Source of the DNA: Sulfurovum sp.
Lineage (GTDB): Bacteria; Campylobacterota; Campylobacteria; Campylobacterales; Sulfurovaceae
Direction of reading: 5' to 3'
Assembly (NCBI GenBank): GCA_024763175.1
Contig: JANTGA010000001.1
Span: 32,767 to 96,766, forward strand
Length of the DNA stretch: 64,000 nucleotides
In this document: positions 128 to 38,448 of the stretch, piece after piece
How positions within the stretch are numbered: the first letter of the stretch is position 1
Layout: each line of letters begins with the position of its first letter
Notes under the pieces: model-generated
Told to the model about the DNA's origin: nothing
Databases searched by the model: none
What the model saw: only the letters and a program-made list of their open reading frames with translations
Made by a program: the position numbers and the translations under genes

Positions 128-1642
128 GTGGCAGTTAAATTGAATGCAGATGAGATCAGCTCGATAATCAAAGAGAGAATTGAAAACTTTGATATTGATA
201 TAGATATCAGTGAGGTAGGAAAAGTAGTAGGTGTGGCAGACGGTATTACCGCTGTCTATGGTCTGAATAATGTCATGGCCGGCGAAGTTGTCGAATTTGA
301 GAATGGTACGAGAGGTTTGGTGCAAAATCTCGAAGAGGCAAGTGTTGGTGTAGCAGTACTCGGTACAATGGAGGGGATAAGAGAAGGGATGAGCGTGAAG
401 CGTCTTGGATCACTTCTCAAGGTTCCTGTCGGCGACAGTCTGCTTGGAAGAGTTATTGATTCACTCGGTGAACCTATCGACGGAAAAGGTGTCATTGAAG
501 CAGCAGAGGAAAGATTTGTTGAAGAAAAAGCACCAGGGATTATGGCGCGTAAATCAGTTCATGAGCCACTACAGACAGGAATCAAGGCAATTGATGCACT
601 GGTTCCGGTCGGTAGAGGACAGAGGGAGCTGATCATTGGTGATAGACAAACAGGTAAGACAACTTTGGCGATCGATACGATCATCAGTCAAAAAGGTCAG
701 GATGTTGTTTGTATCTACGTCGCAATCGGCCAGAAGCAATCAACGGTTGCTTCTATTGTGAAGAAACTTGAAGAGCATGGTGCGATGGAGTATACGATTA
801 TCGTCAATGCATCTGCCTCTGATTCTGCTTCATTGCAATTCCTCGCTCCATATACTGGCGTGACAATGGCTGAATACTTTAGAGATAATGGCAGACACGC
901 GGTAATCTTCTATGATGATCTTTCTAAGCATGCAGTTGCTTACAGAGAGATGTCATTGATCCTTAGAAGACCTCCAGGTCGTGAGGCATATCCAGGTGAT
1001 GTTTTCTATCTCCACTCAAGACTTCTTGAGAGGGCTGCAAAGCTCAATGATGATCTAGGTGCAGGTTCGATCACCGCATTCCCTATTATCGAGACACAGG
1101 CGGGTGATGTTTCGGCATACATTCCTACCAATGTTATCTCTATTACAGATGGTCAAATATTCCTTGAGACTGATCTTTTCAACTCTGGTATCAGACCAGC
1201 GATCAACGTAGGACTTTCCGTATCTCGTGTTGGTGGTGCTGCGCAGATCAAGGCAATGAAGCAGGTTGCCGGAACGTTAAGACTTGATCTTGCATCCTAC
1301 AGGGAGCTACAAGCATTTGCCCAATTTGCATCTGATCTTGATGAACATAGCAGAAACCAGCTTGAAAGAGGACAAAGAATGGTTGAAGTGCTGAAGCAGC
1401 CACCATACCAGCCACTTGCGATTGAGAGACAAGTCGTCAGCATCTTCGCCGGTACAAAAGGTTTCCTTGATGATATTGATGCGGGCAGTGTGACGAAATT
1501 TGAAGCAGAGTTGTATCCATTTATGGAAGCAAAATATTCCAATATTTTCGATGCAATCAGAGAGAGCAAAAAGATAGACAGTGAAACAGAAGCTGATCTT
1601 AAAAAAGCTCTTGAAGATTTTAAAACCTCGTTTGCAGGGTAA
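128..1642 (+). CDS. atpA: F0F1 ATP synthase alpha subunit
   Basis: 504 aa with Walker [10 protein letters not shown] and full-length alpha-subunit-like sequence ([21 protein letters not shown]...). GTG start is preceded by AAAGGAG. Confidence 0.97.
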
Positions 1643-1654
1643 AAAGGCTGTATA

Positions 1655-3960
<2,306 letters not shown>

Positions 3961-3975
3961 ATCTAAAGGATTTGT

Positions 3976-4362
3976 ATGAAATTAATGAAGCTTGAAATCG
4001 TTACCCCCAAAGGGGTTATTTATGACGGTGAAGCAAAACAGGTTACTTTGCCTGGATCAGAAGGTGAGTTCGGCGTATTGCCGGAGCATGCCACCTTGGT
4101 CTCTCTTTTGACGACTGGTATTGTGACGATAGAGATGCCTGACTCCAGCAAAATTGATGTCGCTATCAATTCAGGTTATGTCAAAGTAGACGAGTCAAAA
4201 GTTTCCTGTATCGTAGATGGAGCTGTAGCGCTTTCAGCAGGCGACACAGATATCTCCAAAAAGCTGGAAGAAGCGAGAGATCTTCTCAAGAGTGCAGAGA
4301 CATCCAGTACTGCAATCGCTGCTGCTGTCAGTAAAGTAGAACAGATAGGTAAATCTTTTTAA
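3976..4362 (+). CDS. atpC: F0F1 ATP synthase epsilon subunit
   Basis: 128 aa with a beta-sandwich N-terminus (LEIVTPKGVIYDGEAKQVTLPGSEGEFGVLPEH). Lies directly after atpD. Confidence 0.9.
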   Translation: MKLMKLEIVTPKGVIYDGEAKQVTLPGSEGEFGVLPEHATLVSLLTTGIVTIEMPDSSKIDVAINSGYVKVDESKVSCIVDGAVALSAGDTDISKKLEEARDLLKSAETSSTAIAAAVSKVEQIGKSF

Positions 4363-4363
4363 A

Positions 4364-4951
4364 TTGGGATTTTTTGGTTTTCTTCCTGATTATCTTGTGC
4401 AGAGCAGTGCAATAACACTCTTTGTATTGCTGCTGCTTTCTGCCTATTTTGTCACAACATTTTGGATTTTTTTTTATCGTTTTTCTCTTCTCAAGAGAAG
4501 AATCCGGATCGAAACGAAGTCGCTTAAACTACTCTACCTTGGCAGAAGTCAAACGGTATCCGATGATTCGCTTCTTTTTACCTACCTGCGAAGAGTATCA
4601 GTACCCAATAGGGCTATATTGAGTGCAGCATCGAGTGATACAATTCGGAACTCCACCAGAGGTTTGACACTTCTTTCTATCATTGCATCAACATCACCAT
4701 TTATTGGACTATTTGGAACAGTGGTGGGGATATTGGAAACTTTCAGCAGATTGGGCAGCCAGAAGAGTGCTTCGCTATCTGTTGTTGCTCCAGCTATTTC
4801 AGAGGCTTTGATTGCTACTGCGGCAGGGATATCTGTTGCTATTTTTGCTTACTCCTTTCATCTGATTACGAAAAGAAAAGCCTATGAACTGAGTTCTCTT
4901 TTGCAGTCTCAAATTGATGTTGTCCTCTCGTTGAACGATAGACAAGAGTAG
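4364..4951 (+). CDS. tolQ: MotA/TolQ/ExbB-family proton channel protein (TolQ-like)
   Basis: 195 aa with three hydrophobic segments and the conserved C-terminal region SPFIGLFGTVVGILETF...ISEALIATAAGI. First gene of a tolQRA-tolB-pal-ybgF order. The TTG start is uncertain. Confidence 0.8.
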   Translation: MGFFGFLPDYLVQSSAITLFVLLLLSAYFVTTFWIFFYRFSLLKRRIRIETKSLKLLYLGRSQTVSDDSLLFTYLRRVSVPNRAILSAASSDTIRNSTRGLTLLSIIASTSPFIGLFGTVVGILETFSRLGSQKSASLSVVAPAISEALIATAAGISVAIFAYSFHLITKRKAYELSSLLQSQIDVVLSLNDRQE

Positions 4952-4968
4952 ACGAAGAGCACATACAG

Positions 4969-5355
4969 ATGTTTGGCTGGGATGACGATCCGGATTTAAA
5001 TATTACACCACTTGTTGATGTAATGTTGGTTTTGATGGCAATTCTGATGATTACAGCACCGACAATCAATTTTGAAGAGCAGATAACACTCCCCAAGGGA
5101 TCTCAAAGCAAAGTGCTTAAAAAAATTAAGACACTGACTATCCGAATGGACAAAGATCAGACAATCTATTTGGGCAGAAATACGTATACACTGAATAATT
5201 TTGCAGATAATTTTGTGCTTCATTCGGAGGATTTTGACCTTGAGAGTGATGTCTTTATAAGAGCAGACCAGCGGCTGGCCTACAGGGATGTGATGTATCT
5301 GCTTAAAAGTGTCAAACATGTCGGATTTACCAAGGTCTCTTTGATCACTGAATAA
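4969..5355 (+). CDS. tolR: ExbD/TolR-family biopolymer transport protein
   Basis: 128 aa. N-terminal DLNITPLVDVMLVLMAILMI is a single TM segment with the conserved Asp. Confidence 0.85.
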   Translation: MFGWDDDPDLNITPLVDVMLVLMAILMITAPTINFEEQITLPKGSQSKVLKKIKTLTIRMDKDQTIYLGRNTYTLNNFADNFVLHSEDFDLESDVFIRADQRLAYRDVMYLLKSVKHVGFTKVSLITE

Positions 5356-6098
5356 TGGAACAATATTTTAAGATCATTAGTGGAATACTGGCATTTTTTG
5401 TCTATTTTGCTTTATTGGGACTGCTGTTTAACTATTTTAATCACCATACACACAAGAGAGCAATTCATTACGTTGAAAAGAATGATAAGAGGATTACTGT
5501 ATCACTTTCTGAACCGCTCGTCAAGCAGAATAAACAGGCAGAAACCACTAAGCAAAAACAAAAACCAAAGGTTATGGTGAAACCAAAACCAAGAATTGAA
5601 GAAAAGCCAAAGCCAAAACATGCAGCAAAACCAGTGAAGCCGATAAAGAAAAAAATAAAAAAGGTCACACACAAAAGTAGCAAGAGAGAGAAACCAAAAG
5701 CAAAGAGTATGCCAAAAAAAAAGATCAATGTGAATAATTTATTTAGTCAAATCAATGAAAAAAAGCCAAATAGAAAATATATCAAGCACTCCAATAAACA
5801 ATCACTAAAAGATGAAAGAGATAGAGACCATGGCATTGAAAATGCCTATTTTGCCAAGGTCGAGAAGGTACTTCAAGGTTGGCCTTCTCAGAGTGAATTC
5901 GCGGGACAAACAGTCAAGGTATGGCTCCGTATCAGCAGAGATGGAAGTTTCCGATTTAGACTCCTTTCCGCTTCTAATAATCAAGATTTCAACAGTGGGC
6001 TGATACAATACCTTCGACAGCTTCAAAGAATAGGATTTGATCCGCATCAAAATACCAAAGCATATGAGCTAAATGTCGAATTTATAGCCAAGGAGTAA
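5355..6098 (+). CDS. TonB-C/TolA-like energy-transducer protein
   Basis: 247 aa with an N-terminal TM anchor, a Lys/Pro-rich spacer (KPKPRIEEKPKPKHAAKPVKPIKKK) and a C-terminal TonB_C-like domain. TAATG overlap with tolR. Confidence 0.75.
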   Translation: MEQYFKIISGILAFFVYFALLGLLFNYFNHHTHKRAIHYVEKNDKRITVSLSEPLVKQNKQAETTKQKQKPKVMVKPKPRIEEKPKPKHAAKPVKPIKKKIKKVTHKSSKREKPKAKSMPKKKINVNNLFSQINEKKPNRKYIKHSNKQSLKDERDRDHGIENAYFAKVEKVLQGWPSQSEFAGQTVKVWLRISRDGSFRFRLLSASNNQDFNSGLIQYLRQLQRIGFDPHQNTKAYELNVEFIAKE

Positions 6099-6100
6099 CC

Positions 6101-7345
6101 ATGAGATATCTTTTAATGTTTATTGTAACACTTCAGCTTTTTGCTGTTGATGCGACATTGAAGATCGAAAAGGATGTTGAGCAGCGAGCAAGGATTTCAC
6201 TCGTAGATGGTTCTGGATCTTCATCAGGAATGAATGAAAAATTCTTTAATACACTGTTTTCGGACTTGAAGATCAGCGGACACTTTCTGCCGGATCATAC
6301 ACACCATCGCGGAAGTGTAGCCAACGGGACCATAGCGCCATCACTGAAGTCAAAAGATTATGTGTTGAAATACGCACTTTCGCAGAGTGGCGGACTCAAA
6401 GCAACCGTTAAACTTTTTAACGCTTCAGATGCATCACTGCTTGCCGTAAAAGATTATAGGATCGGATCTGCCAACAAGTATCCTTTTTTGGCACATAAAA
6501 TTATCAGTGATATCAATGCTGTGCTCAAGTATCCTGATATCAGCTGGCTGAACCGTTATGTTGTTTTTTCCCGATATACAACCGCCAAGAGAAGCGTCAT
6601 CATTTTAGCTGACTATACGATGCAGTATCAAAAGACTGTCATAAGAGGCGGATTGAACCTTTTTCCAAAATGGGCAGACTCCCAGCAAAAGAGTTTTTAT
6701 TATACCTCATTTAATGGTACGCTGCCAACACTCTATCGTCTCAATATCTATAATGGCTCAAAAACCAGGATAACGTCATCTCAGGGTATGCTGGTTTGTT
6801 CGGATGTGAGTCAAAATGGAAGCAGGATACTCTTGACGATGGCACCCAATGCACAACCTGATATTTATGAAATGAGTGTTGCATCGCGATCGCTTAGGCA
6901 GATTACCAATTTTGCGGGCATCGATGTGGGCGGAAAGTATCTCGGCGGTGAGCGAAGTATCGTTTTTGTTTCAAATCGTCTGGGATATGCTAACATTTTC
7001 AAAAAAGCCATAGGCGGCAGTGCAGTCTCGCAGCTGGTTTATCGAGGCAGAGACAATAATGCAGTTGATGCAAACGGAAACAAAGTACTCTATTCAAGCA
7101 GAGAGAGTCACAATAGTTTTGGGTTGAATGCGTTCAACCTCTATTTGATGAGTGCCAATGGCAGCGGCACACGACCACTGACGACTACCGGGGTCAATCA
7201 GTTTCCAAGATTTTCTGCAAACGGCAATGCTGTTTTGTATGTCAAACAGTATCAAAATAGAAGTTCTGTCGGATATATCAATCTTGCAAGTAAGCAAACC
7301 CTTCTCTTCCCCCTGGGCGGAAAAGTGCAATCAATTGATTGGTAA
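6101..7345 (+). CDS. tolB: Tol-Pal system beta-propeller protein TolB
   Basis: 414 aa with a signal peptide and repeated propeller-type segments (PDIYEM..., FPRFSANGNAVLYV). Lies between the tolA-like gene and pal. Confidence 0.85.
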   Translation: MRYLLMFIVTLQLFAVDATLKIEKDVEQRARISLVDGSGSSSGMNEKFFNTLFSDLKISGHFLPDHTHHRGSVANGTIAPSLKSKDYVLKYALSQSGGLKATVKLFNASDASLLAVKDYRIGSANKYPFLAHKIISDINAVLKYPDISWLNRYVVFSRYTTAKRSVIILADYTMQYQKTVIRGGLNLFPKWADSQQKSFYYTSFNGTLPTLYRLNIYNGSKTRITSSQGMLVCSDVSQNGSRILLTMAPNAQPDIYEMSVASRSLRQITNFAGIDVGGKYLGGERSIVFVSNRLGYANIFKKAIGGSAVSQLVYRGRDNNAVDANGNKVLYSSRESHNSFGLNAFNLYLMSANGSGTRPLTTTGVNQFPRFSANGNAVLYVKQYQNRSSVGYINLASKQTLLFPLGGKVQSIDW

Positions 7346-7366
7346 AATTAAGTTAAAGGATAGGTA

Positions 7367-7876
7367 ATGAAACTAAAAACAATACTTTTATTGGCAATAA
7401 TTGTCTTATTGACGAGTGGATGCAGCCAAAAGAAACCAAAACCAAACGGAAATGCGTCTGATGCCAATGGCATCGCAGCTGATACTGTTTCGATTGATGA
7501 AAGCGGCGTGAATGGCCAAAGTGGCTACAATGGAAGTTCAGATGGCATGAAGAGTGTCTATTTTGATTTTGGAAAGTATAATCTCTCCTATGATATGCAA
7601 AGCACAATAGCACTCAATGCAAGTGTACTCAGGCAGAAGCTGAAAGGCAGAAAAGTCAAACTGGAAGGTAATTGTGATGAATTTGGAACAGATGAGTACA
7701 ATTATGCACTTGGTCTCAAGAGAGCCAAAGCAGTTAAAGACAGTCTTCAAGCACAAGGTATCAATGCGGGTCAAATTGTACTGGTAAGTTTCGGTGAGAG
7801 CAATCCCCAGTGTTATGAGGCTACCGATGACTGTTATGCTCGCAATAGACGGGTTGATCTTCATTTGACGAGATAG
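7367..7876 (+). CDS. pal: Peptidoglycan-associated lipoprotein (OmpA-C family)
   Basis: 169 aa with lipobox LLTSGC and an OmpA_C-like region (VYFDFGKYNL..., NCDEFGTDEYNYALGLKRAKAV, RRVDL). Confidence 0.9.
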   Translation: MKLKTILLLAIIVLLTSGCSQKKPKPNGNASDANGIAADTVSIDESGVNGQSGYNGSSDGMKSVYFDFGKYNLSYDMQSTIALNASVLRQKLKGRKVKLEGNCDEFGTDEYNYALGLKRAKAVKDSLQAQGINAGQIVLVSFGESNPQCYEATDDCYARNRRVDLHLTR

Positions 7877-12772: not shown

Positions 12773-14380
12773 ATGCTTGAAATCATTGTATTGACGATCT
12801 TCATTGCGATCATCTCCAACCTCTTTCTCAGTAGATTGCATATCCCTACGATCATAGGGTATATCGCAACGGGCGCCATTATTACCTATTTTATGAATCT
12901 GACCGATGCGTCTCAATCCAAAACACTGGAGATAGTGGCTGAGTTTGGGATTGTATTTTTGATGTTTACGATCGGTCTGGAGTTTTCGATCCACCATCTC
13001 GTAAAGATGCGCAAAGAGGTGTTTCTCTATGGGGGACTGCAAGTCGGTCTGAGTGCCGTGGTCTTCTATTTGGTTGGTCACTACTATTTTGGTGTAGAGC
13101 CAAAGGCATCGATTGTTATCGCGGCAGCATTGTCGCTCTCTTCGACTGCGATTGTACTGAAGATACTCAACAGTAACCGGGAGATCAACAAGGAGTATGG
13201 TAAACGCTCGCTGGGTATTTTGATTTTTCAGGATATTATGGTGATTCCTATTCTCTTGATGATTAGTATCTTTTCTGCAGAGAGTGTTTCACTGGGCTCG
13301 CTGTTACTGAAGACACTTTTTGATGCGGCGATACTGTTTGTTGTGCTGTGGGGGTTTGGGAGATATATTCTTGATCCTTTTTTGGGTGAAGTGGTCAAGA
13401 GCAATTCGGATGAAATATTTATCGGTTCCGTTCTCTTTTTGGTTATCGGTGCATCGACACTTGCACATGACCTTGGTTTTTCCTATTCGCTTGGTGCCTT
13501 TATTGCGGGGATGATTATCTCTGAGACACGTTACAAATACCAGGTTGAAGCAGACTTGATCCCATTCCGTGATCTCCTGTTGGGCATCTTTTTTATTACT
13601 GTAGGGATGCAGATCAATTTCTCTATCGTTGCTGAGTACTATATGACTATATTGGGGTTGCTGCTGCTCTTTACCGTCGTGAAGATGTCGATTATCTATC
13701 TGCTCTTGAGGTGGACGGCGGGGCAGCGTGTCGCATTGAAGACATCACTTGCACTTTTTCAGCTCGGTGAGTTCGGTCTTGTGGTTTTCGAGCTGGCAGG
13801 TTCTCACAGCCTGGTAGACCCCACGATTTCGCAAGTTTTGATCGTGACGATTATCCTCTCGATGATCTTGACACCTTTTGTACTGCGCAATCTCTCTTCG
13901 ATCGCTGATTTGATTCTGAAAGAGGAGGAGCCGACGTCCATTGAGAGCTATGGGGTGGATCGACTGAAGAACCATATCATTGTTCTAGGCTATGGACGTC
14001 TGGGACGCAAGATATGTGAGAAACTGGAAGCAGCCTCTATGCAGTATATTGCCATAGAGAGCAATATCTACAATGTCAAAGAGGCACAAAAGCAAGGGAA
14101 AAATGTCATTTTTGGTAATGCCGGCAAAAAGAGTATCCTTGAATCTGTCAATATTCACGAGGCCTCTACAGTGATCGTAGCATTGGACAACATGGAGAAA
14201 CTGCATTTGGTGTGTGACATACTGGAGAAAATGGCGCCCAGGGCTAAGATCGTCGCAAAAGTTAACCGTTTCAAAGAGAAAGACGCACTCATAGAGGAGT
14301 TTCCTCACTATGAGATCGTCGTAGGTACAGAGCAGGTGGCGAGAGGTATGTTCGAAGCATCCAAGGTTTGCAGGATTTAG
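12773..14380 (+). CDS. CPA2-family cation:proton antiporter with C-terminal RCK/TrkA-N domain (KefB/KefC-like)
   Basis: 535 aa with about 12 hydrophobic segments, followed by a Rossmann motif (IIVLGYGRLGRKI). Confidence 0.85.
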   Translation: MLEIIVLTIFIAIISNLFLSRLHIPTIIGYIATGAIITYFMNLTDASQSKTLEIVAEFGIVFLMFTIGLEFSIHHLVKMRKEVFLYGGLQVGLSAVVFYLVGHYYFGVEPKASIVIAAALSLSSTAIVLKILNSNREINKEYGKRSLGILIFQDIMVIPILLMISIFSAESVSLGSLLLKTLFDAAILFVVLWGFGRYILDPFLGEVVKSNSDEIFIGSVLFLVIGASTLAHDLGFSYSLGAFIAGMIISETRYKYQVEADLIPFRDLLLGIFFITVGMQINFSIVAEYYMTILGLLLLFTVVKMSIIYLLLRWTAGQRVALKTSLALFQLGEFGLVVFELAGSHSLVDPTISQVLIVTIILSMILTPFVLRNLSSIADLILKEEEPTSIESYGVDRLKNHIIVLGYGRLGRKICEKLEAASMQYIAIESNIYNVKEAQKQGKNVIFGNAGKKSILESVNIHEASTVIVALDNMEKLHLVCDILEKMAPRAKIVAKVNRFKEKDALIEEFPHYEIVVGTEQVARGMFEASKVCRI

Positions 14381-14544
14381 AAATCCGAGAGAGACTTATT
14401 CTTTGACCGTTTGAGATCTGGTCAGTTTCTGAGGCTACTTAAAAGCCCCCTTTCACCAACTATTAGATAGAATATTTCCATCAATTCGGACGATGCAGGG
14501 GATAGATTTTCTTGTGTCGTTCGGGATCAAATGAAGGAGTGTCA

Positions 14545-15483
14545 ATGTCAGTCAAGTGTGCATTTTTATTCCCGGGACAGGGTTCCCAGGCTGTTGGAAT
14601 GGGTCAGGATTTTTTTGAGAAGAGTGCAGTCGCCAGAGAGATGATCGAAGCAGCAGGAGATCGAACGGGGATCGATTTTGAGCGATTGCTTTTTACTGAA
14701 AATGAAGATTTGGAGAAGACGGAGTTTACGCAGCCGGCGATTTTGCTCGTCAGTGCGATCGCCCATCGACTCTTTGAAAATGAGATGGCGATCAGGCCGG
14801 TTTTTGCTTTGGGCCATTCGCTGGGAGAGTTTTCTGCTTTGGTCAGTGTCGGTGCACTTGATACCTTCGATGCAGTCGCACTGGTCAATCTCCGCGGCAA
14901 GTTGATGGCAGAGGCTTGTGAAGGTCAGGACGTAGGGATGATGGTTTCTCTGGGCTTGGGAGATGAAGTGGTCGAAGAGATCTGTACCACCCAGAGAGAG
15001 CAGGGGATGAGAGTCTGGCCTGTCAACTACAATGCAGAAGGACAGATCGTCATCGCCGGGATCAAGTCTGATCTTGTGAAACTCGAGCCGGTACTCAAAG
15101 AGGCCAAAGCGAGACGCGCCATGCTGCTCAACATGTCTGTCGCCAGCCACTGCCCACTACTCGAAAGTGCCACAGAGCCACTGGCAGAAAAACTCTCCGA
15201 GATGCTCAGAGACACATTCATCGCACCGGTGATCTCCAATGTCACGGCAGAAAAATACAGCACCAAAGCCGAAGCACTCGATCTGCTCCCCCGCCAGCTA
15301 ATCTCACCGGTACTTTATAAGCAATCGATCGCAAAGTTCGATGATGAGGTAGATTGTTATGTTGAATTTGGCCACGGAGGCGTACTCAAAGGCCTCAACA
15401 GACGCGCCACCAAGAAACCGCACTATGTCGTTTCAGATATGGCATCATTGCAGGAAGCAGTCTCGGAGATCGCTAAGCTATAG
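14545..15483 (+). CDS. fabD: Malonyl-CoA:ACP transacylase
   Basis: FLFPGQGSQAVGMG and the active-site GHSLGEFSAL are present. ATG 14545 follows AAGGAG; the ORF track starts upstream at TTG 14512, which lacks an RBS. Confidence 0.93.
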   Translation: MSVKCAFLFPGQGSQAVGMGQDFFEKSAVAREMIEAAGDRTGIDFERLLFTENEDLEKTEFTQPAILLVSAIAHRLFENEMAIRPVFALGHSLGEFSALVSVGALDTFDAVALVNLRGKLMAEACEGQDVGMMVSLGLGDEVVEEICTTQREQGMRVWPVNYNAEGQIVIAGIKSDLVKLEPVLKEAKARRAMLLNMSVASHCPLLESATEPLAEKLSEMLRDTFIAPVISNVTAEKYSTKAEALDLLPRQLISPVLYKQSIAKFDDEVDCYVEFGHGGVLKGLNRRATKKPHYVVSDMASLQEAVSEIAKL

Positions 15484-15516
15484 TCGTCCTGCCTAGATAC
15501 AAATGACTAAGCTTAT

Positions 15517-15556
15517 GCAGTTTTCCTTTTGGAAGGGAAAACTGCGAGGGTTTTTT
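15517..15556. terminator. Intrinsic terminator between convergent fabD and the island operon
   Basis: GCAGTTTTCC-(9 nt)-GGAAAACTGC forms a 10-bp stem at 15517-15545, followed by TTTTTT at 15551-15556 on the plus strand. It lies downstream of both convergent genes. Confidence 0.6.
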
Positions 15557-16582
15557 CTATAGACGAAGCTGAAGATTCAGTGTGACAAGATCAATCTCTT
15601 TATTGGTAAGCGGTGTATCTCCCTTTTCGTATTTTAAGCTCAGGCCAACATTGTCGTTAAGCCACCAGGTGCTTCCTATCTTAAGAATATCAGAATAACC
15701 ATCTAGATCCCCACTAAAGTCATACCAAATATTATAAGTACCGTATACCTCCCATGGAGAAGATTTTCCAAAAAGTTTGAATCTCAATTCCAGCGAAGTG
15801 GTTATGGCAAATATATTGTCGTGCTCTTGACGGTCAATATAAGCACTTTCGGAGAGAACTCGACTATATATGAGGCCGGGGATGATCCGCAATAAATATA
15901 CTATTCCTGTACTCTCCCTATTACTATTGTCCATCAAGCCATGCCAGCTACCGGTTTTGAATCGTTCTCCAAACATGACTGTCGGCTCGTATTTAAATTC
16001 AACATTGATCATTGCGCCCTCAAAGTCAAAATCTGTCATATAAGAAAGGGAGAAATAATAATCATCTCTCCATTGAGCCAATCCTTTGAGGTTTCCGGAT
16101 GAATCTCTCTCCCTACGTACTCTATGTGATATTGCATAATCAATAGGAAGATAAAAAGACAACTCTTCTGTGTTTGCCTGCCTGTTCCACTTTATTGTGG
16201 GGAGCAGTGCAAGTTTTGTATAGACAAATTTGTTCCAATCCTCAGAATCTCGTCTCGGCTGATATCTTTTACTGATTGGATAAATGAGGGCACCTTTTGA
16301 TTGCCATATTCCGGTATCTTCAATTCGGTCATTGGCATAACTGATAAAAGCTCCATCTACCTCTTTGAGGCCCTTATCCCAGTCTTCGTATTTCTCCCGG
16401 AGTCGTACCGGTCCAAATGTACTATTTGTATCCTTGGACACCTTTGTTTTATACGTCAACTTAGCTAACTTAGAAATAGTATTATTACTATCGGATTTAT
16501 TTTCATCTTTAGCATAAGTCAAAGAGGTAAAAAGAAATAGACATAGAAAAAATAAGAAAAATACAGGTTTTTTAGTTCTCAT
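15557..16582 (-). CDS. Hypothetical secreted beta-rich protein (possible outer-membrane protein)
   Basis: 341 aa with signal peptide MRTKKPVFFLFFLCLFLFTSLTYA|KD. Aromatic-rich with alternating patterns toward the C-terminus (VGLSLKYEKG, VTLNLQLRL). ATGA overlap with the upstream gene. No family recognised. Confidence 0.65.
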   Translation of the reverse strand: MRTKKPVFFLFFLCLFLFTSLTYAKDENKSDSNNTISKLAKLTYKTKVSKDTNSTFGPVRLREKYEDWDKGLKEVDGAFISYANDRIEDTGIWQSKGALIYPISKRYQPRRDSEDWNKFVYTKLALLPTIKWNRQANTEELSFYLPIDYAISHRVRRERDSSGNLKGLAQWRDDYYFSLSYMTDFDFEGAMINVEFKYEPTVMFGERFKTGSWHGLMDNSNRESTGIVYLLRIIPGLIYSRVLSESAYIDRQEHDNIFAITTSLELRFKLFGKSSPWEVYGTYNIWYDFSGDLDGYSDILKIGSTWWLNDNVGLSLKYEKGDTPLTNKEIDLVTLNLQLRL

Positions 16583-17280
16583 AGTCTAAACTCCTTATCA
16601 ATATACTTGTAAAAGATTCTGTTGGCAAGATCTTCTACTGTAGTAACATGTATTAAATCATTAATATCAGCAGTCGAATAATATCGTCCAAAAAAATCGT
16701 CACCATCAATCCAGCCCGCGAGCTCCTCATAGTCCTTTTCGCCATTAAAATATAGATCTTTTTTTAGATTGCTTGCAGGCTGGACATCCTTCAAAGCATA
16801 ACCCATGTAACAAGCAATCATTTTTCTCGTTATATCAAGCACCTGACTGTATGTAATTTTATGTTGAGGAAGTGTTGGCGTGCATTGTTCGCTTTTGTTG
16901 TGAACCCTGGAAATATTACTCTTTAGCAGATTATCTTTCTTTTCTATCTTATCTTTCCGACTATGTTTTTCCCATATTACCTCATAAAGATCCCGAATAG
17001 TATCAGCTTTCTCAAGGTCATCAGCATTGACGTCTACTTCAACATCCCTGAAAAAGACATTTTCTGTCAACCCTTTGAGACTCTTTTTCTCCTCTTTGCT
17101 GTACCCCAGATCATCTTCCAGCTTTTTCCCGACTGCGACATCATCCCAGTCCAATCCTCTATCGAAAGCGATCATATGCTTCGTTCTGTTCATTGCTTCC
17201 CTTTTCGTCATCTGGAAAGTTCCGTCTGCAGACCTGCTCAGTCGAAATGATATGACTCGGTCATTATTTTTGTTTAGCAT
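16579..17280 (-). CDS. Hypothetical protein with two tandem ACP-like/DUF1493-like helical modules
   Basis: 233 aa. The internal duplication is visible by eye (aa ~24-105 versus ~142-228), with an ACP-type pattern (DDLGYSKEEKKSL / KDLYFNGEKDYEEL; TIRDLYEVI / TVEDLANRI). RBS GGAGGAAAAG lies upstream. Confidence 0.65.
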   Translation of the reverse strand: MLNKNNDRVISFRLSRSADGTFQMTKREAMNRTKHMIAFDRGLDWDDVAVGKKLEDDLGYSKEEKKSLKGLTENVFFRDVEVDVNADDLEKADTIRDLYEVIWEKHSRKDKIEKKDNLLKSNISRVHNKSEQCTPTLPQHKITYSQVLDITRKMIACYMGYALKDVQPASNLKKDLYFNGEKDYEELAGWIDGDDFFGRYYSTADINDLIHVTTVEDLANRIFYKYIDKEFRL

Positions 17281-17358
17281 CTTTTCCTCCTGGAAAATAT
17301 TTTGCGATTATCTCCAGGTTTTACCTGGGGATGACTCCTTTGATTGATAAGAGTAAAT

Positions 17359-18537
17359 CTAAGGTAATTTTACCACTCTTATTTTTGGGCTCACACTTGA
17401 GTCGATCTTGTAGTCCATTTCAGAGAATGCTACCAGCGAATCTGATGAAATTACTTTTCCGTCTTTGTCTGCCAGGATGTAGGTAACGGTACCTCCTCCA
17501 ATATAGGCAGTATGACCGGAACTGAAAATCCGCTTCTCGGTGATAGCCTCACCGCCACTTGACGAGATCTCAAGATAAAGAAGATGCGTGATGACCATCT
17601 TTCTGATATGCTCTTGCACCATAGCCGAAACAATAAGGGGCTGACTCTGATCTTTTTCGGTAGTCATAATGGAGTCAATAAAAGCATCAAAAACCTTTAG
17701 AATATTTGTAGATTCTTTAATAGCCGATTCTCCCTCCTCCTCCTTTGACAGTAATTCCTTGCTCTCATCCAGCTCTTTTCTCTTCTGTATCAATTCCTCT
17801 AACTCTTTCAAAAGACTTGATTCGCTGACCATATTAAAATTGATGATGTGTACATTGTATTTGTCGCTGATCTTTCCCGCGACTATCGCAGCCATTGCGT
17901 CGCTGTCTAGCTTGAAATCTTGGCCCTTGATGCTATAGTCAACTTTAAAATATCCGACTATATCTGCTATGGCGCTAATGATACCTGATGCGGTAGAAAC
18001 TGCTTCGATAACTCTTTTTGTGCCCGTATTCTTGGCGGCTTCGACAACTCTTTTTTTGCCCGCACTCTCGGCGGTAGGTGTTACTTTTTTTTGTTCAGGC
18101 ATTGGTGGATTCTTTAATTTCTTGTTCTCTTTAATCTGCTTATCAAATATGCCCTGAAACAATGAAAACTGATTATTGATTTGCATCAAAGAAAAATCTT
18201 TCTCCGCAAAATTCAATTGATCCACTATGAGAATTCTACTCCCCGGAGGCAATTGTGATTTTTTGATTTGCTCCCCTGCTTTTTCGGCACTCGACTTCAT
18301 TGCATGGTAAGCTACCAATTCAGATAAATATCCAAACTTATCATCTGCGTCGATCGTGCCTTCCAGTGCTTTCGTGTCTCCTTTTGGAAGATTGATCTCT
18401 CTCGCTTCTTTTTTCGACTTGGCAATCTCCAGCTCAGCTTTTGCGGCAGCCTCTTTTTCTTGGGCTATTTTAGTTTCTTTCTTAAGTTCCTTTAGCTGAT
18501 CGTTTGAGTCATTTTTATCTTTTTTATCTCTACGCAT
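17359..18537 (-). CDS. Hypothetical charged coiled-coil protein, no recognisable domain
   Basis: 392 aa with no signal peptide, no Cys and no Trp. Lys/Glu-rich N-terminus (KELKKETKIAQEKEAAAKAELEIAKSKKEA). First gene of the three-gene minus-strand operon. Confidence 0.65.
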   Translation of the reverse strand: MRRDKKDKNDSNDQLKELKKETKIAQEKEAAAKAELEIAKSKKEAREINLPKGDTKALEGTIDADDKFGYLSELVAYHAMKSSAEKAGEQIKKSQLPPGSRILIVDQLNFAEKDFSLMQINNQFSLFQGIFDKQIKENKKLKNPPMPEQKKVTPTAESAGKKRVVEAAKNTGTKRVIEAVSTASGIISAIADIVGYFKVDYSIKGQDFKLDSDAMAAIVAGKISDKYNVHIINFNMVSESSLLKELEELIQKRKELDESKELLSKEEEGESAIKESTNILKVFDAFIDSIMTTEKDQSQPLIVSAMVQEHIRKMVITHLLYLEISSSGGEAITEKRIFSSGHTAYIGGGTVTYILADKDGKVISSDSLVAFSEMDYKIDSSVSPKIRVVKLP

Positions 18538-18779
18538 ACTATAAAGTCCTTTTTTTATTATAGCATCAGTTTAAAATAGAATCAAAGAGTATTGTGAGAA
18601 TAACTTGCTTTATTGGGATAAATTACTGTAAATGTTACACTTATATTTGACTCTTAAGAAATCAAGAGGTAATAATGAATACTAAATAGTCAATAGTAAT
18701 TGGGGATAAATTAAGTAATATTAATTTATACTATATAGTAATTAAATTTATGTAAATACTAATTCTAAAGGAGTCAAAT

Positions 18780-20360
18780 GTGAAACGATTAATAGTTTGT
18801 TGTGACGGTACGTGGAATAGTGCTGAGCAGGAGGATAATGGTGTCAGTGCACCTACTAATGTAGTCAAGATATACAATGCCATAGCCGATGTCGATAGTG
18901 AGGGGGTTCGGCAGGAGAAGTATTATCATCCTGGTGTCGGCGGTGAGGATATCGGCCCGGTTGACGCGGTATTGGGTGGTGCTGTGGGCTTGGGTCTGGG
19001 ACGGCATATTCGCAGTGCCTATCACTGGCTGGGTAGCAATTATGAAGAGGGCGATGAGATCTATCTGTTTGGTTTCAGCCGGGGTGCCTTTACGGTGAGA
19101 AGCCTGGGTGGAATGCTGAGTCGGGGACTGCTCGATCTGCGCTATATCCCTACCAAAAATACATGGTCCCGCGTCAAAAAGGCGTATGATGAAGGCTATC
19201 GTAACAAGGATGCGAGTCTGGACGACTGGGCAGATCCTGACTGGGCATTTTTTCATAACAGAGAAGAGATGCCTATCCATTTCATCGGTGTGTGGGATAC
19301 AGTGGGCGCCCTGGGTGTACCCGATGATCTGGAGATTTTCAATTTTTTTGACGATAAGAAAAAATGGCAATTTCACGATACCTCTCTGGGGGACAATGTC
19401 AAACATGCCCGCCATGCCATGGCTATCGATGAGATGCGTTCGTGTTTTTGCGTGACGCGCTGGGAAAATGCTATCCATCATCCAGATGCTGTGGAGCTCT
19501 GGTTTCCCGGTGTCCACTCAGATGTGGGCGGTGGCTATGCAGAGTGTGACCTCTCAAACGGCGCGTTGAAATGGATGATCGATGAGAGCAGCAGTGTGGG
19601 GCTGGGCTTTCGAGACACTGCAACGCAGACCATACAGGCCAATCCACTGGGAGTGATGCACAACTCCTACAGAGGGGCCTTTGCCAAACTTCGTTCCAGA
19701 CCTCGAAATATACCTGCACTCATACCCCAAAATCATCAGCAGTTTCACAAGAGTGCGATCATACGTCAAGAGGTTTCACCTATCGAGCATCCTCTCTATC
19801 ACCCTACCAAGCTATTGGAGATTGGGGAGTCAGTGACAGTCAATATCTACGCAGATACCCACTGGAACCCCACGCATATCTATCTGCAAAAGGGCCATAT
19901 TTACAGCTTTTCTGCCAAAGGAGAGTGGAAGGATTGGAGAGACAGCTGTGACTGGAGAGGTACAGAGGATGGGCATCCGAGCACCGGTGATGTGATGCGG
20001 GCCGCCTCTTCCTTTTTGGGCAGGTTCGAAAAACAGTTCAAAAAACTCACCGATAACCAATCGACAGATTTTCTCGGAACGAAACGTGTAGAAAATCTGA
20101 AGTGGTTTACGATGGTGGGTGCCATCACCAATGATGCAGGCAAGGTGGATGTAGTGGGCAATGACGGCAGTCCGGTACCGCATCAATATATCGACCTTAC
20201 TGAGTACAAAGAGAAGCCTTTGAAGATCTCGGTGACAGAATCTTCAAGGATTCCTGTCGGTCCGGGATATCTCTACTGCTTCCCCAATGACGTATGGAGC
20301 CTCTACGGCAACAACCACGGCAGCATACAGTTGACAGTCACACGTCTACCGTCATCGTAA
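18780..20360 (+). CDS. DUF2235 (Tle1-like alpha/beta hydrolase) fused to a C-terminal PA-IL/LecA-like lectin domain
   Basis: 526 aa with the DUF2235 motifs LIVCCDGTWN, YHPGVGG, GFSRGA (GxSxG), GVWDTVGALG, HAMAIDEMR and WFPGVHSDVGGGY. The C-terminal ~180 aa end in FPNDVWSLYGNNHGSIQLTV, which resembles the LecA C-terminus as I recall it. GTG start after AAAGGAG. Confidence 0.85.
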   Translation: MKRLIVCCDGTWNSAEQEDNGVSAPTNVVKIYNAIADVDSEGVRQEKYYHPGVGGEDIGPVDAVLGGAVGLGLGRHIRSAYHWLGSNYEEGDEIYLFGFSRGAFTVRSLGGMLSRGLLDLRYIPTKNTWSRVKKAYDEGYRNKDASLDDWADPDWAFFHNREEMPIHFIGVWDTVGALGVPDDLEIFNFFDDKKKWQFHDTSLGDNVKHARHAMAIDEMRSCFCVTRWENAIHHPDAVELWFPGVHSDVGGGYAECDLSNGALKWMIDESSSVGLGFRDTATQTIQANPLGVMHNSYRGAFAKLRSRPRNIPALIPQNHQQFHKSAIIRQEVSPIEHPLYHPTKLLEIGESVTVNIYADTHWNPTHIYLQKGHIYSFSAKGEWKDWRDSCDWRGTEDGHPSTGDVMRAASSFLGRFEKQFKKLTDNQSTDFLGTKRVENLKWFTMVGAITNDAGKVDVVGNDGSPVPHQYIDLTEYKEKPLKISVTESSRIPVGPGYLYCFPNDVWSLYGNNHGSIQLTVTRLPSS

Positions 20361-35033: not shown

Positions 35034-35312
35034 ATGTTAGCAACAATGGATTTGAAAGATGCCCGTATAGAATTTAAAACATCTAAAGATATTAAGGCAC
35101 TATTGCAAGAAGCTGCAAACTCTTTAGGTATGGATCTGAGTTCTTTTCTTATTTCTACTGCAACCCAAAGAGCTAAAGATGTCATCAAAGAAGATAATAT
35201 GCTGATACTCTCGAAAGGGGAGTGGAAATATTTTGAAAGAAATATTGCTTCACCAAAAAAGCCTACAAAGGCGCTTAAAGAGTTGATGAATCTGGAAGGT
35301 TTTGATGACTAA
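35034..35312 (+). CDS. DUF1778 (TacA/AtaR-type RHH) antitoxin
   Basis: 92 aa. RIEFKTSKDIKALLQEAANSLGMDLSSFLISTATQRAKDVI is the typical DUF1778 ribbon-helix-helix. Overlaps the downstream GNAT gene. Confidence 0.85.
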   Translation: MLATMDLKDARIEFKTSKDIKALLQEAANSLGMDLSSFLISTATQRAKDVIKEDNMLILSKGEWKYFERNIASPKKPTKALKELMNLEGFDD

Positions 35313-35817
35313 GTATCGGCTTGTAAAATTTAATACTTCAGGCAGTTATAAAAGTATAAAAATATTTGATTGTAATAATGATATGATCAATACTTTCGTA
35401 CACAAATCCCTCAAAAAGCGTGTAAAAAAACATTTAAGTCAAGCCTATGTACTTCTGAGAGACGATACTTTTTCAGGCTTTTATACCTTAGATGCATTTT
35501 CTATAGCCAGAGATATATTTGAAACAGAGCATAAACCTTCTGCTCTTCCTCCTGTTGTTCCTGTGGTAAAATTAGGCATGTTGGCTGTAGATAAAAACCT
35601 TCAGGGGCAAGGCTTGGGAAAAAGACTGTTGCGTGATGCCATGTTAAAAGTAGCAGAAATTTCAGAACTTGCGGGCTGTGCAGGTATCTATCTTTTGGCA
35701 GAAAAAGATGCTGTTACATTTTATACATCATTAGGTTTTATTAAAATTAAAGAAGAGACTCCCTCTCCAATGTTTTTGAGTATAGAGCAAGTGCCTGACA
35801 CTTCAGAAGTTTCTTGA
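35305..35817 (+). CDS. GNAT-family acetyltransferase toxin (TacT/AtaT-type)
   Basis: About 170 aa with the acetyl-CoA motif QGQGLGKRLLRDAM. 8-nt overlap with the DUF1778 gene. Confidence 0.85.
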   Translation: MTKYRLVKFNTSGSYKSIKIFDCNNDMINTFVHKSLKKRVKKHLSQAYVLLRDDTFSGFYTLDAFSIARDIFETEHKPSALPPVVPVVKLGMLAVDKNLQGQGLGKRLLRDAMLKVAEISELAGCAGIYLLAEKDAVTFYTSLGFIKIKEETPSPMFLSIEQVPDTSEVS

Positions 35818-36558: not shown

Positions 36559-38448
36559 ATGTTTATTAGAAGAACCGTCTCTAAAAATAAAAAATACGAT
36601 ACTGAAAAATATTATACCTACAGACTGGTAGAATCATACAGAGTAGGCGACAAAGTAAGACAGAGAGTCCTGATCAATTTAGGTTCCGATTTCAATGTAG
36701 ATAAAGAGAAGTGGTCCATACTCTCAAATAGAATCGAAGATATCATAAAAAGAAGAGAATCGCTCTTTGAGACAGACAAAGAACTTGAATCGCTGGCACA
36801 GCAGTATGCACTGCAGCTGATATCGGTTAGTGGAGTAAAGAGCACGGAGACAAGCAGGGATGAGGCGTACCAAAGTATCGATGTCAACGCCATAGAACAG
36901 ATCAATCCCAGATCTATAGGATGTGAGCATATTGTCTATGAGACTATCAAAGAACTGCAGCTTGAAGCACGCTTTGCATCTCTTGGATTTACCACCACAC
37001 AGATCAACAGCGCCATAGGTATCCTCATTGCCAAAGCCTGTCATCCCGGCAGTGAAGCCAAAAGTATCGATTGGCTCAGATATACAAGTGGTGCAGGTGA
37101 ACTGTATGGGTGTGATTACAACACGCTATCAGATAACTCCCTCTATCGTATAGCGGATACTTTTCTTACGAATAAAGAAGCCATAGAACAGCACCTCCAT
37201 AACAGATCAAAGCAACTCTTTGACTATGATGAGGCTATTACACTGTATGATTTGACCAATACCTACTTTGAAGGGGATGCCAAAAAAATAGAAAAAGCAG
37301 CCAGGGGCAGAAGCAAGGAGAAGCGAAGTGATGCAAAGCTTGTGACATTGGCAGTCGTACTTGAGGGCAGCGGTTTTATCAAAAAAAGTACCATCTTTGA
37401 GGGCAATATCTCCGAACCCTCTACACTCAAAGAGATGATTGATACTTTGCGTGTGCCATCAAACAATACCGATCATACCCCTGGCAGCAACGACAAGCAC
37501 CCAACCCTCCCCGGCACCCGCAAAAGCTCTCTGGTGGTAATGGATGCCGGTATCGCTTCACAGGAGAATATAGACTATCTCAAAGAGAATGGTTATGACT
37601 ATCTGGTCGTCAGTAGAAAAAGGGAGAAACAGTTTGACCCGGTCAAAGCGGTGGAGGTAAAAACAGACAAGAAGGACAATGTCATCGTAAGAGCCCAAAG
37701 GGTTGAGATAAAAGATGAAGAGGATAATATAGAAGAGATAGAGTTATATTGTCACTCCAAACCAAGAGAACTCAAAGAAGATTCTATGCAGCAGAGAGCG
37801 CAAAGTAAATTCACCCGGGCACTGGATTATCTGGGTGAAGGGCTCGGCATACCAAGACGGACAAAAAACTACGAGAAGGTATTGCAAAAGGTAGGTGCAC
37901 TCAAAAGCGATTACGCCTCCATTGCCAAATACTATACCGTCACTGTTAAAAAAGATCCCGACTCATCCAATGCTCTATCGGTAAGTTACAAAGAGAAGAG
38001 AGGCACGGATGATAAGAGTGCGATGAATGGTGTCTATTGTCTGCGAACGAATAATACTACAATGGATGAGAAGAGTCTGTGGCGTACTTACACAACCCTG
38101 ACAGACCTGGAGGCAGTCTTTCGGACACTCAAAAGTGAACTGGGGCTTCGTCCCATCTATCATAGAACAGGACAAAGGGTAGATGGGCATTTGTTTATTA
38201 CCCTTATTGCCTACACCCTCATTCATACCATCAGATATAAACTTAGATCAAAAGGGATCAATGATAGCTGGAACACTATAAGAGAGAAACTCTCCACCCA
38301 AATCAGAACAACCACGGTCGCTAAGGTAAAAGACGGCAGGGTGCTGTATCTTAGAAAGAGTTCCCTTTTAGATGAGAGAGCAAAGGAGATAGTTGATGCA
38401 TTGGGACTATCTCACAGAGCAGGAGCGGTTACCAAAGTGTATCAATAA
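36559..38448 (+). CDS. IS1634-family DDE transposase
   Basis: 629 aa. The N-terminus MFIRRTVSKNKKYDTEKYYTYRLVESYRVGDKVRQRVLINLG is typical of IS1634 transposases. Candidate DDE context: LYDLTNTYFEG, VVMDAGIAS and YRTLTDLEAVFRTLKSELGLRPIYH. Confidence 0.85.
   Translation: MFIRRTVSKNKKYDTEKYYTYRLVESYRVGDKVRQRVLINLGSDFNVDKEKWSILSNRIEDIIKRRESLFETDKELESLAQQYALQLISVSGVKSTETSRDEAYQSIDVNAIEQINPRSIGCEHIVYETIKELQLEARFASLGFTTTQINSAIGILIAKACHPGSEAKSIDWLRYTSGAGELYGCDYNTLSDNSLYRIADTFLTNKEAIEQHLHNRSKQLFDYDEAITLYDLTNTYFEGDAKKIEKAARGRSKEKRSDAKLVTLAVVLEGSGFIKKSTIFEGNISEPSTLKEMIDTLRVPSNNTDHTPGSNDKHPTLPGTRKSSLVVMDAGIASQENIDYLKENGYDYLVVSRKREKQFDPVKAVEVKTDKKDNVIVRAQRVEIKDEEDNIEEIELYCHSKPRELKEDSMQQRAQSKFTRALDYLGEGLGIPRRTKNYEKVLQKVGALKSDYASIAKYYTVTVKKDPDSSNALSVSYKEKRGTDDKSAMNGVYCLRTNNTTMDEKSLWRTYTTLTDLEAVFRTLKSELGLRPIYHRTGQRVDGHLFITLIAYTLIHTIRYKLRSKGINDSWNTIREKLSTQIRTTTVAKVKDGRVLYLRKSSLLDERAKEIVDALGLSHRAGAVTKVYQ

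Follow-up and report, generated by a model that had tools for sequence, protein, structure and literature searches.

The window analysed here is a stretch of 64,000 nucleotides (nt) from Sulfurovum sp. (Campylobacterota; GenBank assembly GCA_024763175.1, contig JANTGA010000001.1, positions 32,767 to 96,766 of the forward strand), and our subject is a block of three genes on its minus strand, here called p1, p2 and p3. The open reading frame (ORF) of p1 (17359–18537) encodes 392 amino acids (aa), that of p2 (16579–17280) 233 aa and that of p3 (15557–16582) 341 aa, exactly where the original prediction, made from the letters of the DNA, had placed them. The stop of p2 and the start of p3 share an ATGA overlap (16579–16582, minus strand), implying translational coupling, and a spacer of 78 nt (17281–17358, minus strand) separates p1 from p2; both had been described correctly as well. 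This spacer contains a small hairpin (CCAGG-TAAAA-CCTGG) and an AGGAGG ribosome-binding site (RBS) located 7 nt before the ATG of p2. A promoter-like site (18557–18585, minus strand; TTGATT, 17 nt, and TG-TATAAT as an extended −10 element) precedes the start of p1 by about 20 nt; it is recognised by consensus match only (10 of 12 positions), and an AGGA RBS lies between it and p1. At the other end of the block, a GC-rich hairpin (15516–15546) with a T-run on the fabD side sits between the convergent fabD and p3 and is likely a terminator common to these two genes. With its promoter-like site, strong RBSs, gene overlap and terminal hairpin, the block looks like an operon.

The three genes form a real, dedicated module that recurs in Campylobacterota, as had been anticipated. 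The order p1-p2-p3, with tight spacing, is found in at least five lineages: the window itself together with L006-7, then L001-3, L028, L029-31, and a single contig that carries both P0005 and P0060 (L and P numbers denote homologous loci and proteins, respectively). In L001-3, the three proteins measure 437, 219 and 329 aa, again with a 4-nt overlap, and across homologues the p2/p3 junction is either this identical overlap or a gap of 2–12 nt. Divergence from the window proteins runs in parallel, with identities of 53–57% for p1, 46–48% for p2 and 49–51% for p3. Wherever the flanks are readable, the relatives of p2 and p3 sit together directly after p1, the exception being L027, where they follow a C11 protease. 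The surroundings of the triad change from one lineage to another: in L001, it lies between a DUF1353 gene and a pyruvate kinase gene rather than beside fabD or a DUF2235 gene, and fabD adjacency is also absent in L027 and L028. These differing contexts of a co-diverging triad are better evidence for mobility than base composition. The L001 triad also has a type II CRISPR locus (Cas2, Cas1 and Cas9; 13997–17314) some 3 kb away, a setting that resembles a defence island, and the neighbouring DUF1353 gene (7027–7575) matches a PHROG annotated as a tail assembly chaperone.

Searches of Pfam, NCBIfam, PADLOC and PHROGs gave no match at a useful threshold for any of the three proteins, and the earlier statement that they cannot be assigned to curated families stands. 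For p1, composition and an AlphaFold2 model bear out the description of a highly charged protein without Cys or Trp and with a long N-terminal helix: it has no Cys and no Trp, 61 Lys and Arg, and 62 Asp and Glu, and the helix spans residues 8–49. The model, obtained from a 43-sequence alignment, is confident over much of its length (mean predicted local distance difference test score (pLDDT) of 81.5, predicted template-modelling score of 0.67, and 223 residues at pLDDT ≥90). From the N-terminus, it shows a coiled coil, an alpha/beta core, a disordered linker, a hydrophobic segment rich in small residues, a coiled-coil hairpin and three long beta-strands. A conserved loop (LPKGxxKPLEGxITxDDKFGY), modelled in part with low confidence, precedes the alpha/beta core. 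The length of the helical hairpin (residues 241–291) differs greatly between family members; P0154 and P0173 have expansions that reach about 200 aa. The three strands, of 16–19 residues each, bear the invariant ITHLL...SSGGE...GG motifs.

The region that holds our attention is the inter-domain linker (residues ~143–198; 17944–18111, minus strand), whose length and sequence vary across the family alignment and which falls below pLDDT 50 between residues 151 and 198. We regard it as a candidate protease-accessible licensing site. Within it, residues 176–197 (VIEAVSTASGIISAIADIVGYF; 17947–18012, minus strand), rich in Ala, Gly, Ser, Pro, Val, Ile and Leu, contain the most hydrophobic 19-mer of p1 (Kyte-Doolittle score of 1.67) and are left unplaced by AlphaFold. 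This segment is conserved: throughout the family, the variable linker gives way directly to some 25 residues with a high content of Ala, Leu, Val, Gly, Ser, Pro, Ile and Thr, and in 92 of the 117 members this stretch is where hydrophobicity peaks over the entire protein (median Kyte-Doolittle score of 1.71). Just before the hydrophobic segment of p1, a 36-nt tandem direct repeat of 86% identity (18002–18073) encodes a 12-aa duplication (KKRVVEAAKNTG/TKRVIEAVSTAS), which suggests that the linker is evolving fast.

Comparisons with known structures returned nothing for p1. The confident model gives no Foldseek match at E≤1e-3 in the PDB or BFVD; the top matches, NTF2-like and cone-shaped folds, are weak (TM-score ≤0.15) and we distrust them. 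In a sequence search of the PDB, the full p1 profile returned only coiled-coil noise, and profiles of its two globular parts returned nothing. Two further candidate assignments were rejected. A Ser/His/Asp hydrolase built on the invariant H318, S326/S327 and D114 was set aside because H318 and S326 stand 8 residues apart on one predicted strand, and the resemblance to the 'THxxxxGG' motif of MACPF proteins fails on spacing, with no MACPF match in Foldseek.

The p1 family is large. A word-indexed search yielded 46 relatives, and an exhaustive profile search yielded 2,040 clusters at E≤1e-3, 436 of them at E≤1e-30; a metagenome scan for p1 loci added 3 loci. Members occur in bacteria and archaea, including Anaerolineae and Methanosarcinales genomes, and those of Chloroflexota and archaea occur without p3. 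A Pfam scan of 20 members, the longest or N-terminally extended of 139, found no domain except in fusions, and the ten N-terminally extended homologues have no effector-associated domain (EAD) or Death-like domain. Two fusions stand out: P0161 joins an N-terminal astacin to a full p1 module, and P0188 joins a full p1 module to a C-terminal Endonuclease_NS (NucA) domain, both lacking a signal peptide. We found no published name for the family in the literature searched, although a name in literature beyond our reach is possible. In the Anaerolineae loci L018 (5966–7314) and L019 (5944–7346), the p1 homologues are split into two to four ORF pieces and are probably pseudogenes or sequencing frameshifts.

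The second protein, p2, is internally duplicated (hhalign probability of 99.7%, E = 1e-26) and consists of two helical domains of about 90 aa (residues 19–110 and 137–230) connected by a variable linker. Both halves weakly resemble an acyl carrier protein (ACP) over its full length, with E = 8.8e-4 for the PDB entry 6lvt and E = 2e-3 for the NCBIfam ACP model (17.8 bits against a cutoff of 71 bits), in agreement with the earlier reading of p2 as a duplicated, ACP-like helical protein. However, the serine that carries phosphopantetheine in ACPs is not conserved: in the HMMER alignment, the Ser of the DSL motif aligns with Lys, Glu or Gly, and a nearby 'GYS' Ser, shifted from this motif, is present in 6 of 9 homologues. 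By sequence, p2 thus appears to have an ACP-like fold without being a carrier. It is cytoplasmic. In the public cluster P0054, p2 has been called as a protein of 204 aa from a downstream start; the AGGAGG before the first ATG and the conservation of the N-terminus in homologues favour the 233-aa form. Only nine relatives of p2 were found among 5.8 billion proteins, and its domain is not present, in the manner of paired EAD adaptors, in p1, in the C11 protease, in the CHAT protein or in the other ORFs of the fetched loci.

The third protein, p3, starts with a Sec-type signal peptide (residues 1–24, MRTKKPVFFLFFLCLFLFTSLTYA|KD, with cleavage after TYA; 16511–16582, minus strand), which is supported by sequence, alignment and a modelled helix at residues 5–25; homologues conserve it, and a lipobox is absent. 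Aromatic residues make up 14% of the protein, its beta-moment lies about 2 standard deviations above that of shuffled sequences, and the AlphaFold2 prediction is all-beta with some 11–12 strands, albeit from 7 sequences and at a pLDDT of 34.9, which makes the model unusable. Outer-membrane barrels predominate among its Foldseek matches, but every match is non-significant (E>0.03, TM-score ≤0.24). The C-terminus (..LVTLNLQLRL) alternates hydrophobic residues and ends in Leu or Ile among homologues, with no aromatic-ended beta-signal. Of the earlier description of p3, the signal peptide, aromatic content and beta-richness hold, and its placement in the outer membrane is plausible only. As for known outer-membrane beta-barrels, p3 resembles them in its export signal, aromatic-rich mature part, predicted strand number and alternating C-terminus, but differs in having no Pfam match to an outer-membrane protein family and a terminal Leu rather than an aromatic residue. 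We describe it as a plausible outer-membrane beta-barrel. Seven relatives of p3 were found among the same 5.8 billion proteins, and so far the p2-p3 pair is found only in metagenomic contigs of Campylobacterota type. In some p3 homologues (P0050, P0052 and L027 6345–6563), the signal peptide is followed by about 90 additional aa (..FAGSDGLLNEKELIEYLLVHD..) with an EF-hand- or dockerin-like look.

Outside the triad clade, the genomic neighbourhoods of several p1 homologues contain partners of conflict type. In L012, p1 is followed on the same strand by a caspase C14 gene and then by a gene for a 952-aa NTPase combining NACHT and FGE-sulfatase domains, and in L014, p1 and a caspase C14 gene overlap by 4 nt. 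An M28 peptidase gene lies about 20 nt downstream of p1 in L008 and L010. The locus L032-34 encodes in succession a TPR/WD40 protein, an nSTAND2 NTPase, p1 and an EAD5 protein, with a convergent EAD5-trypsin gene. A TIR gene of CAP12/Pycsar type is directly upstream of p1 in L023, STAND ATPase genes adjoin p1 in L004 and L025, and a trypsin-like gene is near p1 in L021. The gene ahead of p2-p3 in L027 encodes a clostripain-like C11 protease of 440 aa with no likeness to p1, and after it come a p2 homologue (44% identity) and the beginning of a p3 homologue, recognised by the N-terminal extension that it has in common with P0050 and P0052. This protease gene and a divergent gene upstream of it, which encodes a 1,228-aa protein with CHAT, TCAD7 and DUF7362/7379/7363 domains, lie within 416–5655. 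This locus may be a distinct system that has the p2-p3 cassette in common with the triad. In a rough neighbour-joining tree, the p1 proteins of the triads form one clade, sister to the group linked to nSTAND2/EAD5-trypsin and M28. The original prediction had seen no pointer to a known type of defence system; this is true of the window but not of the homologues, whose partners are caspase and NACHT, nSTAND2 and EAD5-trypsin, TIR, M28, astacin and NucA for p1, and C11 with CHAT-TCAD7 for p2-p3. A class I/II aminotransferase gene also adjoins p1 homologues at four loci in two arrangements (downstream in L016, L017 and L019, upstream in L020), possibly by coincidence.

In the window, a Pfam scan agrees with the neighbours as first named: fabD is convergent with the block, a gene with a DUF2235/Tle1-like catalytic domain (18780–20360, plus strand) is divergent from it across an AT-rich intergenic region of 242 nt (18538–18779, 22% G+C), and an mtnN-type phosphorylase gene is also present. 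The C-terminal ~250 aa of the Tle1-like protein have no Pfam match. The original prediction had pointed to the position of the three genes next to this one, as a lipase-lectin gene, but the link does not hold up: because its adjacency is not conserved in L001, where DUF1353 and pyruvate kinase genes take its place, the Tle1-like gene is outside the unit and is an incidental neighbour. We found no direct repeats flanking the block that could mark the boundaries of an island.

Base composition says less about the origin of the block than had been expected. The three genes contain 40.7, 38.6 and 38.4% G+C (p1, p2 and p3, respectively) and the block as a whole 39.4%. The flanking genes, three in number, are at about 50% and the window at 44.6%; within the window, the block is the most AT-rich 3 kb (lowest 1.5%). 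The contrast reported earlier (27–37% vs 48–60%) was therefore right in direction but too large. Taken singly, the genes are not outliers: their z-scores for G+C at third codon positions (GC3) are −0.5 to −1.3 (ranks 7, 11 and 18 of 53), none is among the ten genes of the window with the most deviant codon usage, and several housekeeping genes, such as those of ATP synthase subunits, are equally AT-rich. Since gene-by-gene GC3 and codon usage are unexceptional, composition alone does not establish horizontal acquisition, and this earlier argument for it is weak. The lowest GC3 in the window (0.25) belongs to a GNAT acetyltransferase gene (35302–35817) in a second AT-rich patch (~33.6–36 kb), adjoining a gene for a 629-aa DDE transposase (36559–38448).

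The partners of p1 invite comparison with systems in which a latent effector is licensed by an adjacent protease; these include the gasdermins, the Pepco/Trypco and EACC1 pore formers, and zymogens of the metallo-beta-lactamase and alpha/beta-hydrolase types (Evans et al. 2025 preprint, PMC12642450; PMC7159879). Similarly, NACHT/nSTAND NTPases, paired EADs, caspase, trypsin and CHAT proteases, and TCAD are hallmarks of NTP-dependent conflict systems (Kaur et al., PMC7159879, PMC8195603). Like the protease-licensed effectors, p1 homologues are encoded immediately 5' of, or are fused to, a sensor-linked protease (L012, L014, L032 and P0161), p1 is non-enzymatic as judged from its sequence, and its hydrophobic small-residue segment resembles the transmembrane helix of EACC1, which is itself rich in small residues (PMC12642450). 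Unlike them, the p1 family spans 390–670 aa, compared with about 115 aa for EACC1 and Pepco and roughly 115–270 aa for protease-licensed effectors generally (PMC12642450); p1 itself, at 392 aa, has no Pfam match to any of them, EACC1 and Pepco (Trypco) included, and its predicted fold is different. It is absent from the ten protease-associated families surveyed in PMC12642450, and a text search of PMC7159879, PMC8195603 and PMC12642450 found no component like p1, p2 or p3. Gasdermins in particular are not recovered: p1 has no Pfam match of any kind at E≤1, no gasdermin appears among its PDB matches in Foldseek, and a protein devoid of Cys has no N-terminal cysteine for palmitoylation. The effector-beside-protease arrangement, looked for at about 20 loci, is found for several p1 homologues (L008, L010, L012, L014 and L032) and for p2-p3 with C11 in L027, but not for the window triad, which has no protease.

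The STAND- and EAD-based systems (Kaur, Burroughs, Iyer and Aravind 2020, 2021) are approached most closely by L032, with nSTAND2, TPR/WD40, paired EAD5 and trypsin, by L012, with NACHT+FGE-sulfatase and caspase, and by L027, with CHAT+TCAD7. Many hosts of the p1 family, such as Anaerolineae and Methanosarcinales, are also filamentous or aggregate-forming, as in those systems. In contrast, the window triad has no hallmark NTPase, EAD or protease gene, while p1 homologues in L012, L032, L004 and L025 are accompanied by STAND-type NTPases.

Based on the above data, we tentatively propose that the three genes make up a self-contained, mobile cassette of the biological-conflict type, that is, an immune or programmed-death system, with p1 as its latent membrane-targeting effector. 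The assignment of the cassette to conflict systems is somewhat probable in itself, the specific model of p1 as a latent membrane effector is rather doubtful, and the tentative standing of the whole reflects both. In this proposed mechanism, p1 would be held latent until licensed at its variable, disordered linker, by a protease at loci where one is encoded and by some other trigger in the triad. The Ala/Gly/Ser/Val-rich hydrophobic segment that follows would then act as the membrane-inserting element, and the variable coiled coils of p1 may drive oligomeric assembly in the membrane, with a toxic outcome. The occurrence, family-wide, of a hydrophobic segment right after a disordered, variable linker fits a membrane target. 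Class I viral fusion proteins offer a parallel in the logic of priming, to which the linker, hydrophobic peptide and coiled coils of p1 may be likened as an analogy and not as homology. In L012 and L032, the roles of sensor, switch and protease are all filled, and p1 is for this reason the obvious candidate for the terminal effector. The p2-p3 pair would be a tightly coupled accessory unit that can be attached to p1 or to a clostripain-like C11 protease; since either can precede it, regulation or sensing is the more likely role of the pair as the constant part, and p1 and C11 would be the exchangeable outputs.

Several observations weigh against this proposal. No protease, STAND NTPase, TIR or nuclease is encoded near the triad among the window ORFs scanned, and p1, p2, p3 and the Tle1-like neighbour all lack a match in PADLOC-DB 2.0 at E≤1. 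About half of some 15 independent non-triad p1 loci have no conflict-type neighbour. The archaeal loci L005 and L015 (Methanomethylovorans and Methanococcoides), where such a neighbour is likewise absent, display a shared, housekeeping-looking synteny, with an IF-2B-like gene upstream of p1 and genes for an HD-domain protein and a methyltransferase downstream. Neighbourhoods were compared at about 20 loci, whereas the family has at least 2,000 clusters, and at this scale enrichment is not statistically established. Searches by tblastn of plasmids with p1 and P0018 and of phages with p1 returned nothing, P0188 matched plasmids through its nuclease domain only, and a scan of viral contigs (IMG/VR) found no p1 relatives. 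With respect to the mechanism, M28 enzymes are exopeptidases and would be odd as licensing proteases, the hydrophobic segment could be a mere core element that AlphaFold2 failed to place, and the model does not explain how a cytoplasmic p2 cooperates with an exported p3.

Other readings of the same data must be weighed against it. In the first, p1 would be no killer but a coiled-coil scaffold, sensor or regulator, forming a superstructure that controls the attached enzyme (caspase, M28, astacin, trypsin, NucA or TIR) and, in the triad, an envelope-directed output through p2-p3. The partner enzymes indeed vary while p1 stays constant, as is usual where one sensor is combined with interchangeable effectors; scaffolds typically have coiled coils that vary in length, and Kaur et al. 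describe coiled-coil and Band7-like components that form superstructures in such systems. However, the sensor and switch of L012 and L032 are already provided by NACHT+FGE or by nSTAND2+TPR/WD40 and a protease is present, leaving p1 as the sole obvious effector, and in L027 it is a protease, not a sensor, that takes the place of p1 before p2-p3. We consider this scaffold role unlikely, yet worth keeping in mind. A non-immune envelope, secretion or surface module appears more unlikely still; in one such arrangement, p3 would serve as a channel or anchor in the outer membrane and p2 as a chaperone, with p1 being exported or having a structural role at the membrane. This reading draws on the Sec-dependent export of p3, on the outer-membrane barrels that dominate the Foldseek list of its poor model, on the transmembrane-like segment of p1 and on the many p1 genes that stand solo in housekeeping contexts, as well as on the neighbours and fusion partners of p1 from often-secreted families (astacin, NucA, M28, dockerin, and GDSL lipase with a TIG domain). 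Nevertheless, the astacin and NucA fusions lack signal peptides, p1 occurs without p3 in archaea and Chloroflexota, and the cytoplasmic STAND NTPases, EAD5, TIR, caspases and CHAT-TCAD7 are hard to explain as partners of such a module.

The genes flanking the block suggest two other functions, both of which we judge very improbable. The triad could provide immunity, adaptor or chaperone proteins for the adjacent Tle1-like (DUF2235) phospholipase as an effector of a type VI secretion system (T6SS), given that it lies divergently next to this gene and that p3 has a signal peptide like periplasmic Tli immunity proteins. In Tle1-Tli1 pairs, however, the immunity gene is normally directly downstream on the strand of the effector, and the triad is on the opposite one; moreover, the adjacency is absent in L001, the Tle1-like gene has 50% G+C compared with 39% for the triad, the window ORFs scanned include no T6SS genes, and p1 homologues extend to archaea and Chloroflexota. 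The non-conserved adjacency has already largely refuted this possibility. Hardly more credible, and if anything slightly less so, is a p2 acting as a genuine acyl or peptidyl carrier in an operon that makes or transfers a lipid or small molecule with the help of fabD, the gene for malonyl-CoA:ACP transacylase. The ACP similarity of both p2 halves and the convergent fabD speak for it, but the domains are in tandem, their score is far below the ACP cutoff, the phosphopantetheine Ser is neither conserved nor in register with the DSL motif, the operon encodes no synthase, phosphopantetheinyl transferase, acyltransferase or other partner enzyme, and fabD is missing next to p2 homologues in L001, L027 and L028.

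Returning to a conflict cassette with p1 as its latent membrane effector, the models presented here point to an effector-like p1 family, not previously named and with a new predicted fold, and to p2-p3 as a novel accessory pair. A bolder reading, which we hold to be improbable though not negligible, would make p1 a structurally unprecedented, fusion-protein-like class of licensed membrane-attacking death effector in bacteria and archaea, whose Ala/Gly-rich hydrophobic peptide would be exposed when the disordered linker is cleaved or unmasked, and the triad an undescribed immune system free of protease and NTPase, in which p2-p3 would couple an envelope component to a cytoplasmic output (p1, or C11 in L027). 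Death effectors under protease control, gasdermins, Pepco and EACC1 among them, are the subject of rapidly advancing research that connects immunity in bacteria with pyroptosis and apoptosis in eukaryotes. If the proposal is true, this field would gain a new effector class and a new fold from the p1 family, whose roughly 2,000 clusters come from bacteria and methanogenic archaea, and p2-p3, combined with p1 or C11, would represent an unexplored route by which the envelope is connected to suicide or defence inside the cell. As a compact unit of three genes, the triad lends itself to a direct test of this idea.

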